IMG/VR virus record: IMGVR_UViG_3300032220_000699
Span: 64,001 to 128,000 of that record
Reading direction: 5' to 3' (one strand)
DNA length: 64,000 nucleotides
DNA from: a virus
The position numbers and the translations under genes were made by a program. The notes beneath the pieces were generated by a model that saw nothing but the letters and a program-made list of their open reading frames with translations, searched no databases and was not told where the DNA came from. This document shows positions 2,353-49,055 of the stretch, in pieces (the first letter of the stretch is position 1; each line of letters opens with the position of its first letter).

Positions 2353-5154
2353 TTAGTACTTGATGTAACTATAAGAACCAAATGGTTCATCGGCAGAAAG
2401 ATCAGGTAACAAGAATTTATCAGAATTATTTAAAGGAACTTCACCAAGTTGAGAACCATCAAAATAAGAAGAATAATCATTCATACCACTAGAAATACTA
2501 GCAGTAATAACAACACTAGTAGTTACATTACTACCAGATACATTACCACCCATTAAATAAATTCTATTTTTGGTAATAACAGAAGCAGAATAACCAATTG
2601 CTATAGAAATAGAACTGCCAGTTGTCCAAGTTCCAAGATTACCATTGTCATCAATAGGAGCAGTGTAAACAGCACTAGTTGCTGATGTATTACCGTTGAA
2701 ACCACCAAACATATAGAGACGATTCTTAGTCACAATACACTGTGAAGCAAGAAGACCTCCAGGCATTGTAGAGTGAACTGACCAAGAACTGATAAAACCA
2801 TCACTATTAATTGTAGCATAGTAAACAGTATTACTTAAGCCACCGTTCCAGCCACCACAATAATAAATTTTATTTTTAGTAATAGCAACACCACCTGTGC
2901 AGTAAGCTACAGGTATTGTTGTACCAGTAGTCCAAGTACCTAATGTACCATCACTATTAATAGGAGCAGTGTATGTTACACCAGAGTAACTACTATTGAT
3001 ATAACAACCAATTATATAAATTCTATTTCTAGTAATTACTGCAGTACCATAACCGGCAATCACTGGTAAAGCTGTACCAAGTACCCAAGTTCCTAATGTT
3101 CCGTCGGCATTGATATCAGCAGAATAAACATTAGCTGTACTACCACCTATGATATAAACTTTATTTCTAAACGCGATAACTTGTGACGCACTTATAGCTG
3201 AAGGTAAAATTGTACCGGTCGTCCAGTTACCTAATGTACCATCAGCGTTGATAGGAGCAGTATAAACTGTAGAAACAGATGTTCCACTAACATTACCACC
3301 AAGTAAATATACACGGTTCTTTGTGACAACAGCTTGTGAATTACCTAATTGACCAGGTAAATTACTAGAAGCAGAGGTCCAACCAGTTATATCTGTGGAT
3401 TGTGTAGTATTAATCTGATACTGTTGTTGCCATGGCTTACCAGCACCAGGTGTCAGATAGTTAGTTGTATCTTCACCATAATACGAAGAATAATCATTTA
3501 ATCCGCCATTAATAGGTGCAGAATAAATAGCTGATGTCAGTGTTCCGCCAGCGCCTTGACCACCAATTAAATATATTTTATTTTTAGTACAAATAACTGC
3601 AGTTGTTCCTAAACTAGTAGGTAAAGATGTTCCTATTTCCCAGGTGCCTAATGTGCCGTCGCTATTTATGGTAGTAGTATAAACAGTAGAAACATAAGAT
3701 GAACCATTATACCCACCAAGAAGATAGACACGATTCTTAGTTACGAGTGCTTGTGAATTGGCAAGTAGATTTGGTAAACTTCCTGATGTAGTCCAATTAC
3801 CAATTGTACCATCGTCGTTAATAACAGCTGTATGAATGTTATTAGATTGATAAGAACCTAACAGATATACACGATTCTTGGTAACAATGCATGAATACCC
3901 ACTTCCAGCTTGTGGTAAAGAAGGTCCAGTAGTCCAAGTACCTATAATTCCATCTGAAGATATAGATGCAGTATAAACTGTAGAAACAGAGACAGAACCA
4001 GCCGTATTTCCACCGCAAATATACACACGGTTCCTAGTGATAAAACCACTACTCCAGCCTAAAGCGACCGGTAACGATGTTCCAGTAGTCCAAGTACCCA
4101 AAGTACCATCGGCATTAACAACAGCGGTATAAACTGTTGAAACTTGTACAGAATTATCCGTGTAAGCACCAATTAGGTAAACACGGTTTTTAGTAATAAG
4201 AGCAACAGATAAAGACATAATACCAGGCAAAGCTGTGCCTGCTACCCATGCCCCTAGCGTACCGTCGGCGTTAATTGGTGCTGTTAAAACAGCATTAGTG
4301 TAAACACCATTCCATCCGCCAAGCATATAAACACGGTTCTTGGTAACGATAGCCTGAGAATAATATAATCCATTAGGAAGGGTTGAAGAATCAGCAGACC
4401 AACCTGTAATATCGTTAGACTGTGTTGAATTTATAAGATATTGTTGTTTCCAAGGCTGACCATTACCTACGATATTGTTATTTGAATATTGGTTACCAAT
4501 AACAGAATAAAGATTAGCGTAAGTCGTCTTATCAACTTCAGCGCCGTTACACTTCAAGAAACCGCTAGGTGTGGTCGAATAAGGTTTACGAAGAATATCA
4601 CCAACAGCAATACCACCATTACTGATAAGAGCATCAACATACTGCTTGGTGGCTATATGGCTACCAAGAGTAGGTTCATTTGAAATAGTTAAGAAACCAA
4701 GCATTGTAGCGCCATTAACACTGACACCATTAGTAATTCCGTAACCACTTAAAGTTGAAGGAAGTGATCCTTGATTAATTTTTGACCAGTTAAGTCCAAA
4801 AGGAATGTCAGAGTCATTGATATTTGACCCACCTGTAACAATACCTTTAGAATTAACCGTTACCTTTGAATATTCTCCAGCTATAACGCCGCTATTATTT
4901 AAAGTAAGTTGTGTTGTTCCAGGTGATGACTGAAGATCACCTGTGAAATTCGGAAGACGAGCAGCTGGTAAAGTTCCAGCTGTCAGATTACCGGCATTGA
5001 TACTGTTATAGTATGCATCAACATACTGTTTAGGAACAGCTTCCAGTGTTTGACTAGGATTACCAGCCAGCAGCAAAGGACCAGAAATATTACCACCATT
5101 TTCTGTGATGCCACCGCCAGAATAACCGCCCTCGGCATATAAATCTAATCTCAT
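2353..5154 (-). CDS. tail fibre / receptor-binding protein with tail-collar domain and two 6-bladed Kelch-like propellers
   Basis: Fibre repeats (KQYVD twice; VTVNSKGIVTGG), collar motif GDILRKPYSTTPSGFLKCNGAEVDKTTYANLYSVIG, 12 KNRVYxxGG-type blades, C-terminal FLLPDL. Confidence 0.8.
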   Translation of the reverse strand: MRLDLYAEGGYSGGGITENGGNISGPLLLAGNPSQTLEAVPKQYVDAYYNSINAGNLTAGTLPAARLPNFTGDLQSSPGTTQLTLNNSGVIAGEYSKVTVNSKGIVTGGSNINDSDIPFGLNWSKINQGSLPSTLSGYGITNGVSVNGATMLGFLTISNEPTLGSHIATKQYVDALISNGGIAVGDILRKPYSTTPSGFLKCNGAEVDKTTYANLYSVIGNQYSNNNIVGNGQPWKQQYLINSTQSNDITGWSADSSTLPNGLYYSQAIVTKNRVYMLGGWNGVYTNAVLTAPINADGTLGAWVAGTALPGIMSLSVALITKNRVYLIGAYTDNSVQVSTVYTAVVNADGTLGTWTTGTSLPVALGWSSGFITRNRVYICGGNTAGSVSVSTVYTASISSDGIIGTWTTGPSLPQAGSGYSCIVTKNRVYLLGSYQSNNIHTAVINDDGTIGNWTTSGSLPNLLANSQALVTKNRVYLLGGYNGSSYVSTVYTTTINSDGTLGTWEIGTSLPTSLGTTAVICTKNKIYLIGGQGAGGTLTSAIYSAPINGGLNDYSSYYGEDTTNYLTPGAGKPWQQQYQINTTQSTDITGWTSASSNLPGQLGNSQAVVTKNRVYLLGGNVSGTSVSTVYTAPINADGTLGNWTTGTILPSAISASQVIAFRNKVYIIGGSTANVYSADINADGTLGTWVLGTALPVIAGYGTAVITRNRIYIIGCYINSSYSGVTYTAPINSDGTLGTWTTGTTIPVAYCTGGVAITKNKIYYCGGWNGGLSNTVYYATINSDGFISSWSVHSTMPGGLLASQCIVTKNRLYMFGGFNGNTSATSAVYTAPIDDNGNLGTWTTGSSISIAIGYSASVITKNRIYLMGGNVSGSNVTTSVVITASISSGMNDYSSYFDGSQLGEVPLNNSDKFLLPDLSADEPFGSYSYIKY

Positions 5155-30873: not shown

Positions 30874-30981
30874 TTTATCACCTCATGAAGGAATTGAATT
30901 TACTACACTTATTATATATGTAACCAAGATTTTTTCAAACGTATAAAAAAGAAAAAGGTAGCCGAAGCTACCTTAATCTGA

Positions 30982-31450: not shown

Positions 31451-31600
31451 TTATGCTTCTTTCTTTTTACTGAACTTCGCAGTGAGAGAATCCTTCATAG
31501 CTTTAGCTTTCCAACCAAGCCAGAAGAATAGGACACCAGTCATTCCCATTGCAAGAATAACGTCACCCCGTCCTGCGAATATACCAACCGCTGTGTTCAT
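31451..31600 (-). CDS. 49-aa single-TM peptide (not in ORF track)
   Basis: MNTAVGIFAGRGDVILAMGMTGVLFFWLGWKAKAMKDSLTAKFSKKKEA; ATGA overlap with the lipoprotein stop. Confidence 0.65.
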   Translation of the reverse strand: MNTAVGIFAGRGDVILAMGMTGVLFFWLGWKAKAMKDSLTAKFSKKKEA

Positions 31601-32049
31601 TTACCGGTGAACGACTTGAATGGCAGCTTAATGCCGAGGTTACACTGCTTCAGCTCTTTGTAGAAAGCAGTATCGATAAAGTCCTTCTCAAGGAAGCAAC
31701 CCATCTGAGCAGAGTGGGTCGAGCAGTAAGCCTTGTACTTTTCGACTTCCTTGGTCTTCTCGTTCTTTTCACCCATGAACGAAACCCAGATCCAACCGGA
31801 ACCTTGCAAGCACTCGGATGTCATCATCAAATCAGGATGAGTCACAATCTTCATACCAGTAAGGCGTGGATTAGCATCACGATACTCACGTGCCAGTGTA
31901 TCGGCATTGCTGATCGTGGTGGCACGATAAGAGTCCAGGATATCAGCATTGCGGATAGCCAGTTCATCCTTCGTTGGTGCGCGTTCACCACAACCAACCA
32001 TGATGAATGCGGCCAGAGCAATACAAACCATACCAAACATCTTCTTCAT
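31597..32049 (-). CDS. predicted lipoprotein
   Basis: MKKMFGMVCIALAAFIMVGC lipobox; 150 aa; GGAG RBS. Confidence 0.72.
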   Translation of the reverse strand: MKKMFGMVCIALAAFIMVGCGERAPTKDELAIRNADILDSYRATTISNADTLAREYRDANPRLTGMKIVTHPDLMMTSECLQGSGWIWVSFMGEKNEKTKEVEKYKAYCSTHSAQMGCFLEKDFIDTAFYKELKQCNLGIKLPFKSFTGK

Positions 32050-32099
32050 ACGAAACTCCTTTTTATTGAAAGTTGCTACTGGAAAAAACAAAATAAAAA

Positions 32100-32122
32100 G
32101 ACATGAACTATTTGTTCATGTC
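32100..32122 (-). terminator. terminator closing the tRNA-Leu/ncRNA/tmRNA transcript
   Basis: GACATGAAC-tattt-GTTCATGTC hairpin with U-tract on the minus strand. Confidence 0.75.
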
Positions 32123-32251
32123 TGTAAGGAAAGAGAAGGTCCACCTGCCTATTTGGGTAATAAGGACTCCGTCATGATCGGGAGAGCAGGTGGCTTGGAA
32201 GACCGAAGTCAACCAATGACCCCATCGCTAGTCAACTTAGGCTAACCGCTG

Positions 32252-32299
32252 TTAGGCGGCGAGCTTCAGCTGAGGTGCGAACTGTGCATCATTTGCGGC
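32252..32299 (-). other. tmRNA tag reading frame AANDAQFAPQLKLAA*
   Basis: Follows ATAACT (typical pre-resume context); AANDxxxA start and LAA end; TAA stop. Confidence 0.85.
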
Positions 32300-32387
32300 A
32301 GTTATTGAGTTTGCTAGATTTACGTCATTCGCCTGACGTGTCGTTCCTTATCCACTAGTTATGCGCTGTCGAAACCTGTACATCCCC

Positions 32388-32504
32388 ATCAGAGACAGTC
32401 TGAACCAATCGGTCACAATTAACACGTTGACTGCGGTTTTATCCGGAGGCGCTTAACTGTAAATGCCGTTCGCCTTAAACAAGCAAACGCAACCAGACTG
32501 TCTT
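32388..32504 (-). other. tmRNA intervening segment (117 nt)
   Basis: Between the CCA and the 5' G; closed by 10-bp inverted repeat AGACAGTCTG (32393-32402) / CAGACTGTCT (32494-32503). Confidence 0.8.
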
Positions 32505-32624
32505 TGGTGGAGATGGGGGGAATCGAACCCCCGTCCAACACACTTTCATTTCTAAAGTCTCAGAGAGTTACCTCTCCATACGACAATATTCCTTCGCCAT
32601 TGATGAGCATGGGCCGAAGATTGA

Positions 32625-33120
32625 AGCTAGTTAGTCCTCGGGCATTCTATCCCGAATTAGATGCTCTCACATCCCACTTGTTTTAAAGTTCCTGGTGAGA
32701 GACCAGATCCTCTTTGTCAAGCGTTTACGTCAATGTCCGTAGAACTAAAAAGCAAACTTGCCTGGTTACACATCCAGGTTGCTGGGATTAAGCAATGCGA
32801 ACGGATCTACATTTCAATAGTCCGGTTGTTAATCGAATTACACTTATAGATGAGCGACATCTATAAGACACTTGTGAAAGGTCCCACTTTCATCAAGAAC
32901 TGAGCATGTAAGAGCTAAAGATATGGCAGTGGAGAGATCATGTTTAGACGTGACCATGACCCCTAAACCCCACTATTCTGTCTCGATGTAGCAGACCGCG
33001 ATATCCACATCATCGTCGAGCCATATCCTTAGCAAACTAGTCGGGATTCGTCCTAGCCTTAGACGATATCTCTCCGAGATAGTGAGGAAGTTGAACCTCA
33101 CATAAATCCCTTACTCGTAG
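32625..33120 (-). ncRNA. candidate large structured ncRNA of unknown class
   Basis: No genuine ORF; many helices including a 14-bp long-range stem (32914-32927 with 33020-33033) and a 10-bp hairpin (32843-32867). Confidence 0.6.
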
Positions 33121-33123
33121 TGC

Positions 33124-33456
33124 CTAAGCACAATTCTTTTGTTCAGCTCGCCGCGCATTCAAGCGATCAGCCGTAGTGGTTGACTTGCGAGAATTAAGAC
33201 GGTTAGCCAAAGCGATCGGGTGAATACGATAAACACCCTTAGCGATGCGGCGAGTATATTTACGCCATGTCGGAGAATGTTCGCTGGTATCCATCTCAGC
33301 GTTACTGAGAAGAACACCGGTATAAGACTTCTTGATCTTCTCAAAAAAGTCCATAACTTCCTGACGAGTTACGATCAAACCTTTACCGATTTGACCATCA
33401 AGCATAGCATCCAGAAGCGAGTCATGAATGCTGCTAGTGACGTATGTTGCCATCAC
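33124..33456 (-). CDS. hypothetical protein inside the RNA operon
   Basis: 110 aa; GGAG RBS; lies between tRNA-Leu and the structured RNA. Confidence 0.7.
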   Translation of the reverse strand: MMATYVTSSIHDSLLDAMLDGQIGKGLIVTRQEVMDFFEKIKKSYTGVLLSNAEMDTSEHSPTWRKYTRRIAKGVYRIHPIALANRLNSRKSTTTADRLNARRAEQKNCA

Positions 33457-33511
33457 AGTCTCCTTAAAAGAGAGGGTTAAGATTTACTGCGGTTTATACG
33501 TGAAGAGTTAA

Positions 33512-33597
33512 TGGTGCCGGGAACGGGAATCGAACCCGTACACTCAATGAGCGAGAGATTTTAAGTCTCTTGTGTCTACCAATTTCACCACCCCGGC
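33512..33597 (-). tRNA. tRNA-Leu(TAA)
   Basis: Full cloverleaf with long variable arm, AGAGA-CTTAAAA-TCTCT anticodon arm, encoded CCA. Confidence 0.95.
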
Positions 33598-33646
33598 AAC
33601 TTTAAAACTCTTTAGTACAAATAATATATATGTTATTAAAAAAGTA

Positions 33647-34069
33647 TCAGCTGCAGATCTCTTCGTCAGCATCTGAAGCTAGTGATTTATAACCTTTGTA
33701 AGTAGGATGAATTTTATCCTTACTTAAATCAGACTTTCTAGGACTAATAGTAGTGTCTCTATATATACCAGCAACTTGCCTTACAAATTCATATTGTTCT
33801 GGTTTAATATCTTTATTGGGTAATATCCAAGTAACACATTTACTTCTAATTCCCATCCTTAACTTCAGAAGAGAGTTAAAAGTTGGTGTGACCTTTGTAT
33901 CATTTGTTCCCAAACTAATAATAGTATGTTTATTATATATGTTAACTGGTCCATATCTATTAACATAATTTTCCGAATTGATTCCAGATTGAACGTATGC
34001 TTGACATTCTTTTCTGACTTGTGAAATTCCTACACCAATGGAATCTCCAAGTATCAGGCATTCTAACAC
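33647..34069 (-). CDS. SGNH/GDSL-like hydrolase
   Basis: LILGDSIG (block I), SLGTND (block III), DKIHP (block V). Confidence 0.78.
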   Translation of the reverse strand: MLECLILGDSIGVGISQVRKECQAYVQSGINSENYVNRYGPVNIYNKHTIISLGTNDTKVTPTFNSLLKLRMGIRSKCVTWILPNKDIKPEQYEFVRQVAGIYRDTTISPRKSDLSKDKIHPTYKGYKSLASDADEEICS

Positions 34070-48681: not shown

Positions 48682-48689
48682 TAAAACTT

Positions 48690-49010
48690 TACAACTAGTA
48701 GGCGAAAGGATACTTGGCAGTACACTTTCGGCTACTACTCTGAATTCTATCCAGAGCACTAGATTTAACACCGATAGTCAGATGGGCCTTATCCGACAAT
48801 GGCGCCGGTTGCTTCTCACTGCGGCTAAACGGTTTCCAAAGAAAGGATACCAACGCGGCTAGAGAAACAGCTTCAAGTCCAATTGAGTTTACCCAACACT
48901 CAAAAGTTCCTGCGTACAGTTTATGACTGGGTTGTCAAACTTGTATAGGACGCGCGCTTTACACTGTTAGTTAGCGGACGAACATTTGGCAAACAGCATG
49001 GAGCTATAAG
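48690..49010 (-). ncRNA. candidate ~320-nt structured ncRNA
   Basis: ORF-free, GC-richer than its flanks, directly behind promoter motif 49019; several helices. Confidence 0.55.
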
Positions 49011-49055
49011 CCAAATAGTATATATGTAACCAGTTATTTTCCAGTTACATAAATG

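Follow-up and report, generated by a model that had tools for sequence, protein, structure and literature searches.

Three independently inherited structured RNA cassettes between a small protein gene and a two-piece tmRNA in jumbo phages

Introduction

Which RNA, or which RNAs, are encoded by the roughly 500 nt that lie between a small protein gene and the tmRNA of a large uncultured phage? The stretch belongs to a window of 64,000 nt, by which we mean the whole piece of DNA that was analysed (bases 64001-128000 of a 189-kb virus record, with a completeness of 94% according to CheckV), and all positions are given in the numbering of this window. The phage proteins include a phiKZ-like large head protein and virion proteins. 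A first-pass annotation, made from the letters of the window, had offered two readings, one novel ornate RNA or a tmRNA acceptor piece with an unusually long extension on its 5′ side. In tRNA and tmRNA precursors, spacers and intervening sequences are generally regarded as waste. We compare the locus here with its counterparts in sister phages, and argue that it is a mosaic of separable RNA domains.

Results

A folded stretch outside the known RNA families

On the minus strand, to which all features of Table 1 belong, the order is a promoter-like motif, tRNA-Leu(UAA), an ORF of 109 aa, the ORF-free stretch, the two-piece tmRNA and a terminator. The 499 nt of the stretch fold on this strand with -163.6 kcal/mol (z -4.49; none of 100 shuffles folds as well), which is better by 18 kcal/mol than the plus strand of the same 499 nt (-145.1 kcal/mol). 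The minimum-free-energy fold includes the 14-bp stem, the arms nested within it and the 10-bp hairpin at 32843-32867. Every stem named in the first reading is indeed present on the minus strand, that is, the 14-bp stem and the 10-bp hairpin as well as GATGTGG/CTACATC, AGTGGGG/CTCCACT and GGGGTCATG/CATGATCTC, and both partners of the possible pseudoknot GTTTAG/CTAAAC are found in the sequence. The longest ORFs inside the stretch, of 42 aa and 37 aa, have no Pfam match, and were rejected as small protein genes since they span cassette borders that are absent in relatives or suffer indels (1-nt indels separate cassette C from its counterpart C′, see below). No tmRNA-like tag frame was found in the cassettes. 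The stretch had thus been correctly described as non-coding, richly structured and placed on the tmRNA strand.

An Rfam scan of 32100-33600, one of the checks proposed at that stage, matched only tmRNA and tRNA even at E ≤ 10, so that the absence of a known RNA family was borne out. Within the same region and threshold there is no covariance-model match to GOLLD, ROOL, HEARO, OLE or raiA, and the stretch has no match to the group I intron model RF00028, to any Rfam riboswitch or to a ribozyme.

Table 1 Features of the locus in the numbering of the window
Feature	Position	Strand	Basis or remark
Phage promoter-like motif ACATATATA	33625..33633	-	Upstream of tRNA-Leu; likely transcript start
tRNA-Leu(UAA), first gene of the unit	33512..33597	-	ARAGORN; Rfam tRNA, 57.5 bits
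Conserved small protein gene, 109 aa (relatives 93-111 aa)	33124..33453	-	Cassette array bordered on the left by its variable 3′ end
Cassette A, 231 nt	32908..33138	-	Last four sense codons and stop of the small gene, then two folded domains
A1, four-way junction: 5-bp closing helix GGGAU/AUCCC and three hairpins	33043..33110	-	Minimum-free-energy and centroid folds agree
A2, domain with the 14-bp closing stem, two arms and a possible GUUUAG/CUAAAC pseudoknot	32914..33033	-	Sequence and fold
Cassette B, 148 nt, multi-hairpin RNA including a 10-bp hairpin	32760..32907	-	Five variants compared
10-bp hairpin of cassette B, CUUAUAGAUG / CAUCUAUAAG	32843..32867	-	Pair changes in L032 and in L030/L007
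Cassette C, 140 nt, five-way junction; interrupted 10-bp closing helix around four arms	32620..32759	-	Consensus and single-sequence fold
Loop CUCUC of cassette C (hairpin 1, on arm 2), kissing partner	32697..32701	-	Pairs with GAGAG in 7/7 sequences
Loop GAGAG of cassette C (hairpin 2, on arm 3), kissing partner	32664..32668	-	Pairs with CUCUC
Two-piece (circularly permuted) beta-type tmRNA: 5′ leader hairpin, acceptor piece, intervening sequence, coding piece with tag AANDAQFAPQLKLAA	32138..32619	-	ARAGORN, RF04321, RF01850
tmRNA intervening sequence of the window, with 10-bp closing stem	32388..32504	-	Inverted repeat I5; C′ at this position in L022-type relatives
Intrinsic terminator closing the unit of tRNA-Leu, small gene, cassettes and tmRNA	32099..32123	-	10-bp stem, then T run; strong

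The stretch is a mosaic in sister phages

Relatives of the locus were found through homologues of the small ORF on about 30 metagenomic contigs and mapped by blastn, and public contigs were aligned to 32100-33650. The comparison divides the stretch into three independently inherited cassettes, A, B and C. In a wastewater contig 33139 is joined straight to 32907, with a TGA replacing the 231 nt and a small ORF that is five codons shorter. A freshwater contig passes from a diverged ORF end directly to ~32759, skipping ~32760-33196, and a third public contig contains the entire stretch with ~3% differences. The layouts found in the relatives are collected in Table 2. Cassette A is exactly missing, with TGA in its place, in the X3 contig and in L007 and L021; a search of L021 for a tmRNA found none. 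In relatives free of cassettes a terminator hairpin or the tmRNA leader hairpin occupies the site. Most locus types occur in several (2 to 5) independent samples, so that they are unlikely to stem from errors of assembly, and the comparison of these genomes shows that closely related jumbo phages have acquired, lost and moved the cassettes independently.

Table 2 Layouts of the locus, read downstream from the small ORF
Locus type	Order of elements	Found in
1	small ORF, terminator, next gene	L008/9
2	small ORF, tmRNA (3 nt past the stop codon)	L026-28
3	small ORF, C, tmRNA	L016-20
4	small ORF, B, C, tmRNA	X3 contig
5	small ORF, A, B, C, tmRNA	Window; L031 (identical, other sample); L030 (92%)
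6	small ORF, B, C, own terminator, 101-aa ORF; without tmRNA	L007, L021
7	small ORF, unrelated 155-nt tRNA-like module, B, terminator, HNH gene; without C and without tmRNA	L032
8	small ORF, tmRNA acceptor piece, C′ (81% identical to C), coding piece	L022-25, L029

A single RNA of about 500 nt, of the GOLLD or ROOL kind, or a giant 5′ extension kept in the mature tmRNA acceptor piece, would account for a contiguous, ORF-free stretch that folds well overall and sits among tRNA genes, as GOLLD and ROOL often do. The parts of the stretch, however, occur separately and in other orders in sister phages, and in its best fold there is almost no pairing across A, B and C, the exception being one weak outer helix. 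The tmRNA of L026-28 is complete without the 500 nt, B and C (L007, L021) or B (L032) are found without a tmRNA, and the domain with the 14-bp stem belongs to cassette A, the rarest of the three, which argues that the stretch is no single ornate RNA and does not extend the acceptor piece. Considering also the lack of an Rfam match, we regard both forms of this proposal as extremely improbable. What stands of the initial description is a non-coding, folded RNA region adjacent to the tmRNA; its unity as one RNA of ~500 nt does not.

The small ORF that borders the array is a real gene, since the changes in its relatives fall mainly at third codon positions; its homologues (n=20) align with 49 invariant columns. 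No Pfam family matched the protein, and its AlphaFold model (pLDDT 69) has a weak winged-helix likeness, with a best Foldseek E of ~0.1. The C-terminal tail of the protein varies with whichever cassette comes next, and the presence of cassette B goes together with a C-terminus that is 12 aa longer.

The terminators that follow B or B and C (L007:1497-1540, L021:3612-3660 and L032:740-780) have a common stem base, (A/G)(T/C)CTTCAGC ... GCTGAAGAT, with different stem tops and loops, so that terminators of one type are found at more than one kind of cassette junction. In the place of cassette A, L032 has a 155-nt module (L032:425-583) with an acceptor-like 7-bp stem, GCTTAAT/ATTAAGC, and a T-arm-like hairpin, AGAAG-TTCGAAT-CTTCT. 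Neither ARAGORN nor Rfam calls a tRNA in this module, which folds no better than shuffles, and the junction word AAAGAATTG is the only sequence that it shares with cassette A. From its sequence the module may be a decayed or unusual tRNA.

In more distant relatives (L003, L010, L013, L015) the site is occupied by different non-coding sequence or by another tmRNA. Downstream of the small ORF, 0.3-1.6 kb without a called gene are seen at L015:1177-2766, at L003:1705-2290 and 2711-3500, and at L013:2913-3219, and L013 and L015 have a common 188-nt block with 87% identity. These gene-free stretches of L015, L003 and L013 may be further RNA cassettes.

Cassette C is a five-way junction with a kissing loop

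The single-sequence fold of cassette C has -44.2 kcal/mol (z -4.16), makes up 29% of the ensemble and is the same as the RNAalifold consensus. In a model-guided alignment of seven distinct sequences, which represent in effect two deep lineages and were fitted to the model, 98.7% of the cells of its 45 pairs are paired, and nine pairs, one of them in the kissing loop, have changed on both sides; 0 of 500 shuffles reach the observed values. When the partners are slid against each other as a control, pairing falls to 36-45%. The kissing interaction comprises 5 bp, and L022 and L029 read CUCUA and UAGAG at this place, which is a compensatory change from C-G to A-U. Between the window and L022, 13 of the 14 changed pairs remain paired, and the unpaired junction and loop columns are more conserved than the paired ones (6/39 and 22/90 columns differ, respectively). 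The identity of cassette C stays at 81-99% over three contexts, the tmRNA leader, the tmRNA intervening sequence and a terminator-ended 3′ region.

In at least C and B, compensatory changes keep the pairings. These changes, together with those to G-U, indicate selection for the RNA fold of the tmRNA strand in C and, less firmly, in B; the conserved G-U pairs of cassette C also assign the RNA to this strand. The comparative evidence shows cassette C to be a compact five-way junction locked by a loop-loop interaction. Its covariance model detected no diverged copies in 137 kb of related loci. TTGACA-like words in cassette C were considered as part of a sigma-70 promoter and rejected, since no acceptable -10 stands at the right spacing, and a scan gave no minus-strand site in the stretch.

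The size and complexity of cassette C, with its conserved unpaired nucleotides, are typical of aptamers, and it could be a riboswitch-like element that senses a ligand or a protein and controls the downstream sequence. The layout of L007 and L021, in which C is followed by a terminator, a Shine-Dalgarno sequence and the 101-aa ORF, would suit such a function, and a riboswitch in a phage two-piece tmRNA gene provides a precedent (PMC9004378). On the other hand, no known riboswitch family in Rfam matches, no conserved antiterminator pairing is seen (the tails of L007 and L021 differ), and L032 has the same terminator type after B alone. The window, moreover, has no expression platform before the tmRNA, and neither has L022, where C′ lies in an excised intervening sequence. 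We therefore consider control of the downstream sequence by cassette C very unlikely.

Cassettes A and B

The fold of cassette B has a z of -2.44. Its five variants (window, L030, L021, L007 and L032), which amount to three shallow lineages, were compared over 41 consensus pairs. At two of these pairs, which belong to the 10-bp hairpin and to the CCUGG/CCAGG hairpin, respectively, both partners have changed in compensation, and the four one-sided changes each yield G-U, so that no pair is broken and all six changed pairs are still paired. In the 10-bp hairpin, L032 has G-C changed to A-U and A-U to G-U, and L030 and L007 have U-A changed to U-G. A long-range helix predicted by RNAalifold from four sequences was dropped, because L032 mismatches two of its seven pairs and RNAalifold with the five variants does not contain it. 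The covariation of cassette B is weaker than that of C, though consistent in itself, which suggests, less firmly, that its pairs are kept. L032 carries cassette B alone, followed by a terminator.

Cassette A is found in the window, in L031 (identical) and in L030 (three differences), and in no other relative. Its predicted fold (z -3.87) consists of the four-way junction A1 and the 14-bp-stem domain A2. The 14-bp stem, GCTAAGGATATGGC/GCCATATCTTTAGC at 33033-33020 / 32927-32914, has 13 Watson-Crick pairs and one G-U. The comparison for this cassette comprises two distinct sequences, and two of the three differences across the whole of A preserve pairing, whereas the third disrupts a pair whichever candidate arm model is taken.

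The lack of covariation support for cassette A bears on the idea that the cassettes are functionless recombination debris, that is, leftovers of endonuclease-driven gene conversion and decayed RNA genes that fold by chance. Their variable presence within one phage clade, the HNH-rich surroundings and the tRNA-like remnant at the site in L032 would agree with this origin. Chance folding, in contrast, is difficult to reconcile with the maintenance of 13 of 14 changed pairs in cassette C, the loop-loop pair included, and of six out of six in cassette B. Between the window and L007, B and C are also better conserved (94%) than the adjacent protein gene (86.5%), and we judge debris to be a highly improbable origin.

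The two-piece tmRNA and C′

The tmRNA is called by ARAGORN at 32161-32597, by RF04321 with 102 bits at 32252-32562 and by RF01850 with 96 bits at 32191-32639, where the first 50 positions are an unpaired leader; no model extends past 32639. In L026-28 the tmRNA cassette begins 3 nt past the stop codon of the small gene, which places the 5′ border of the tmRNA cassette at ~32619. Cassette C was considered as the tmRNA intervening sequence of the window and rejected, as it sits 5′ of the acceptor piece; C′ of L022-25 and L029 has the inside position. In L022 both the ARAGORN call (3309-3766) and the RF04321 call (3344-3675, 92 bits) span C′ at 3404-3522, which makes C′ the intervening sequence of that permuted gene.

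The T-arm/CCA region of the tmRNA (32495-32536) is 93-95% identical over 42 nt to six ~93-kb Pseudomonas siphophage genomes (PaMx31, SM1 and others), in which no feature is listed there. In a blastn search of 32100-33500 against 50,697 phage records, the tmRNA T-arm was the only match. When cores of the three cassettes and of the leader were used as exact patterns, IMG/VR, JGI metagenomes and GTDB genomes yielded 0 matches, and no additional related loci came to light when the lipoprotein gene, the major head protein and the small-gene alignment served as protein anchors. By these searches, the cassettes are so far confined to a single clade of jumbo phages, which are uncultured and come from wastewater and freshwater. 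Parts of the stretch are present in 13 studies of wastewater and freshwater metagenomes. Runs labelled RNA-Seq that contain the stretch consist of assembled contigs and are flagged as probably DNA.

The transcript unit and its surroundings

The motif ACATATATA has 14 copies in the window, all on the minus strand, with 0.9 expected; they include 30913-30921 and 49019-49027 besides the site upstream of tRNA-Leu. Six sites were compared with the genes (33625, 33934, 34652, 30913, 30208 and 49019), and they lie in short gaps before or between genes. The motif is probably a phage-specific promoter. No other copy occurs between 33625-33633 and the terminator at 32099-32123, and no minus-strand terminator was found between 33456 and 32123, from which we infer that the cassettes are probably co-transcribed with tRNA-Leu, the small gene and the tmRNA.

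The block 31500-33600, which spans tRNA-Leu, the small gene, the cassettes, the tmRNA and the next, lipoprotein-like gene, is a G+C island (~46% against ~31% in the flanks), whose composition could be constrained by RNA structure or point to a foreign origin. HNH endonuclease genes occupy at least five different positions within ~1.5 kb of the cassette array in the window and its relatives. An antisense role of the cassettes is unsupported, since in RNAduplex the three cassettes pair with the pieces of the tmRNA, or with the 5′ region of the small-gene mRNA, no better than shuffles do. A repeat or MITE-like element was likewise rejected because A, B, C and the intervening sequence are each single-copy in the 189-kb genome, and another ORF-free spacer (48682-49055) has no sequence relation to the cassettes.

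In several sister phages tRNA-Leu(UAA) is interrupted near the anticodon loop (L003:2292-2600, L021:2293-2892 and L023:31-691; the window counterpart is ~33562-33570). The inserts score just under the threshold of the group I intron model, with 45.7 bits (E 1e-9) for L003 and 34.4 bits (E 6e-7) for L021. The gene of the window, at 33512-33597, is unsplit. The split tRNA-Leu(UAA) of these jumbo phages resembles the classic cyanobacterial tRNA-Leu(UAA) intron.

Discussion

With modest confidence, we propose that 32620-33138 is probably a non-coding spacer that is transcribed and consists of three autonomous, structured RNA cassettes, which lie between the small gene and the two-piece tmRNA and are co-transcribed, processed out and shuffled. 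A single transcript would start at the promoter-like motif, run through tRNA-Leu, the small gene, A, B, C and the tmRNA, and end at the terminator. The enzymes that mature tRNA and tmRNA would then cut this transcript, and each cassette would either be freed as a small stable RNA or be kept as the folded 3′ end of the small-gene mRNA. As each cassette is a self-contained, helix-closed domain, it could work wherever it is co-transcribed, which would explain why its position varies between the tmRNA leader (window), the tmRNA intervening sequence (L022-type phages) and a terminator-ended 3′ region (L007, L021 and L032). The shuffling would be driven by recombination, the region being a hotspot with many free-standing HNH homing endonuclease genes.

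A two-piece tmRNA requires that the CCA end of its acceptor piece be free and that the 5′ end of its coding piece be mature (PMC11915505), so that C′ must be excised in the L022-type phages. The terminators after B in L032 and after B and C in L007 and L021 fit stand-alone or 3′-UTR-derived RNAs. Because the fold and the loop sequences of cassette C are kept in all three transcript contexts, an autonomous RNA released by processing is, in our view, the best explanation.

The same layouts could arise if the cassettes acted purely in cis, as elements for processing or stability, and the excised RNA had no function. They would then be 3′-UTR blocks that shield the small-gene mRNA from 3′ exonucleases after removal of the tmRNA, or helix-closed filler that presents the cleavage sites of the tmRNA. 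Indeed, the cassettes always lie directly after the small gene or within the tmRNA precursor, and their place can be taken by a terminator or the tmRNA leader hairpin. They are closed by helices (14 bp in A2, as compared with 10 bp in the intervening sequence of the window) and are dispensable, as the locus types with none demonstrate, which also fits filler. The longer C-terminus that accompanies cassette B looks as if the gene end and the 3′ UTR were one unit. An exonuclease block or filler, however, needs neither a five-way junction nor conserved loop and junction nucleotides nor a compensated kissing loop, and the preservation of cassette C across its three contexts also speaks against it. 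A role confined to cis thus seems to us rather unlikely.

Among known systems, GOLLD and ROOL are likewise structured non-coding phage sequences near tRNA genes. The present locus differs from them in that it gives no covariance-model match and, instead of a single conserved architecture of at least 400 nt, has three domains of 140-230 nt that can be separated. The tRNA cluster of phage T4 contains two stable RNAs (species 1 and 2, RNA C and D), which are ORF-free, 120-140 nt long and have no assigned function. They are co-transcribed with the tRNA genes and released by tRNA-processing enzymes. By description, the cassettes resemble them as ORF-free RNAs among phage stable-RNA genes; to our knowledge, neither modularity nor a position inside a tmRNA gene is known for the T4 RNAs.

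The intervening sequences of circularly permuted, two-piece tmRNA genes are a further relevant case, reportedly treated by Keiler et al. in 2000 and by Sharkady and Williams in 2004. As far as we could find, the literature contains no description of them as conserved, covarying, position-independent RNA domains. C′ is similar to these sequences, as it lies between the acceptor CCA end and the 5′ G of the coding piece and needs to be excised. Cassette C is different in that it lies outside the tmRNA gene, in its 5′ leader, in the window, and occurs without any tmRNA in other relatives.

Two-piece tmRNA genes were found in 53 of 402 tmRNA-bearing phage genomes, and the two-piece ssrA gene of the OM43 phage Melnitz harbours a glutamine riboswitch, the glnA motif (PMC9004378). 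Like the cassettes, this is a structured module of independent origin that is tied to a phage two-piece tmRNA gene and is present in some relatives and absent in others. The Melnitz module, however, belongs to a known class, whereas A, B and C match no Rfam family. That tmRNA intervening sequences can hold cargo is evident from a whole tRNA-Ala gene within one of them (PMC11915505).

What is new here, on the comparison of related loci, is that one covarying domain occurs in a tmRNA leader, in a tmRNA intervening sequence and in the absence of a tmRNA. Such a distribution sets the cassette apart from the tmRNA and argues that the functional unit is the excised RNA. What looks in one genome like a single RNA of GOLLD size is a mosaic, which becomes visible only through comparison with sister genomes, and the locus offers a natural series of deletions and relocations for experiments, as soon as a host is available.

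A bolder proposal, which we consider unlikely, is that cassette C founds a new class of compact phage RNAs, with a five-way junction and a locking kissing loop, that are plugged interchangeably into the leader or the intervening sequence of tmRNA. Freed as the tmRNA matures, they would intervene in ribosome rescue or in some other process of the host, for instance as binding partners of SmpB or of a different protein, as ligand sensors or through catalysis of their own excision, with B and A as additional cargo RNAs of this delivery system. If this were true, the discarded parts of stable-RNA precursors would be a general launch site for phage effector RNAs.

Returning to the autonomous cassettes that we favour, the retention of cassette C at such identity across three transcript contexts argues that the product is the excised piece itself. 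If so, the stable-RNA operons of phages would carry unrecognised small RNAs, and the annotation of large phages would be missing a class of genes beside their translation-related cargo.
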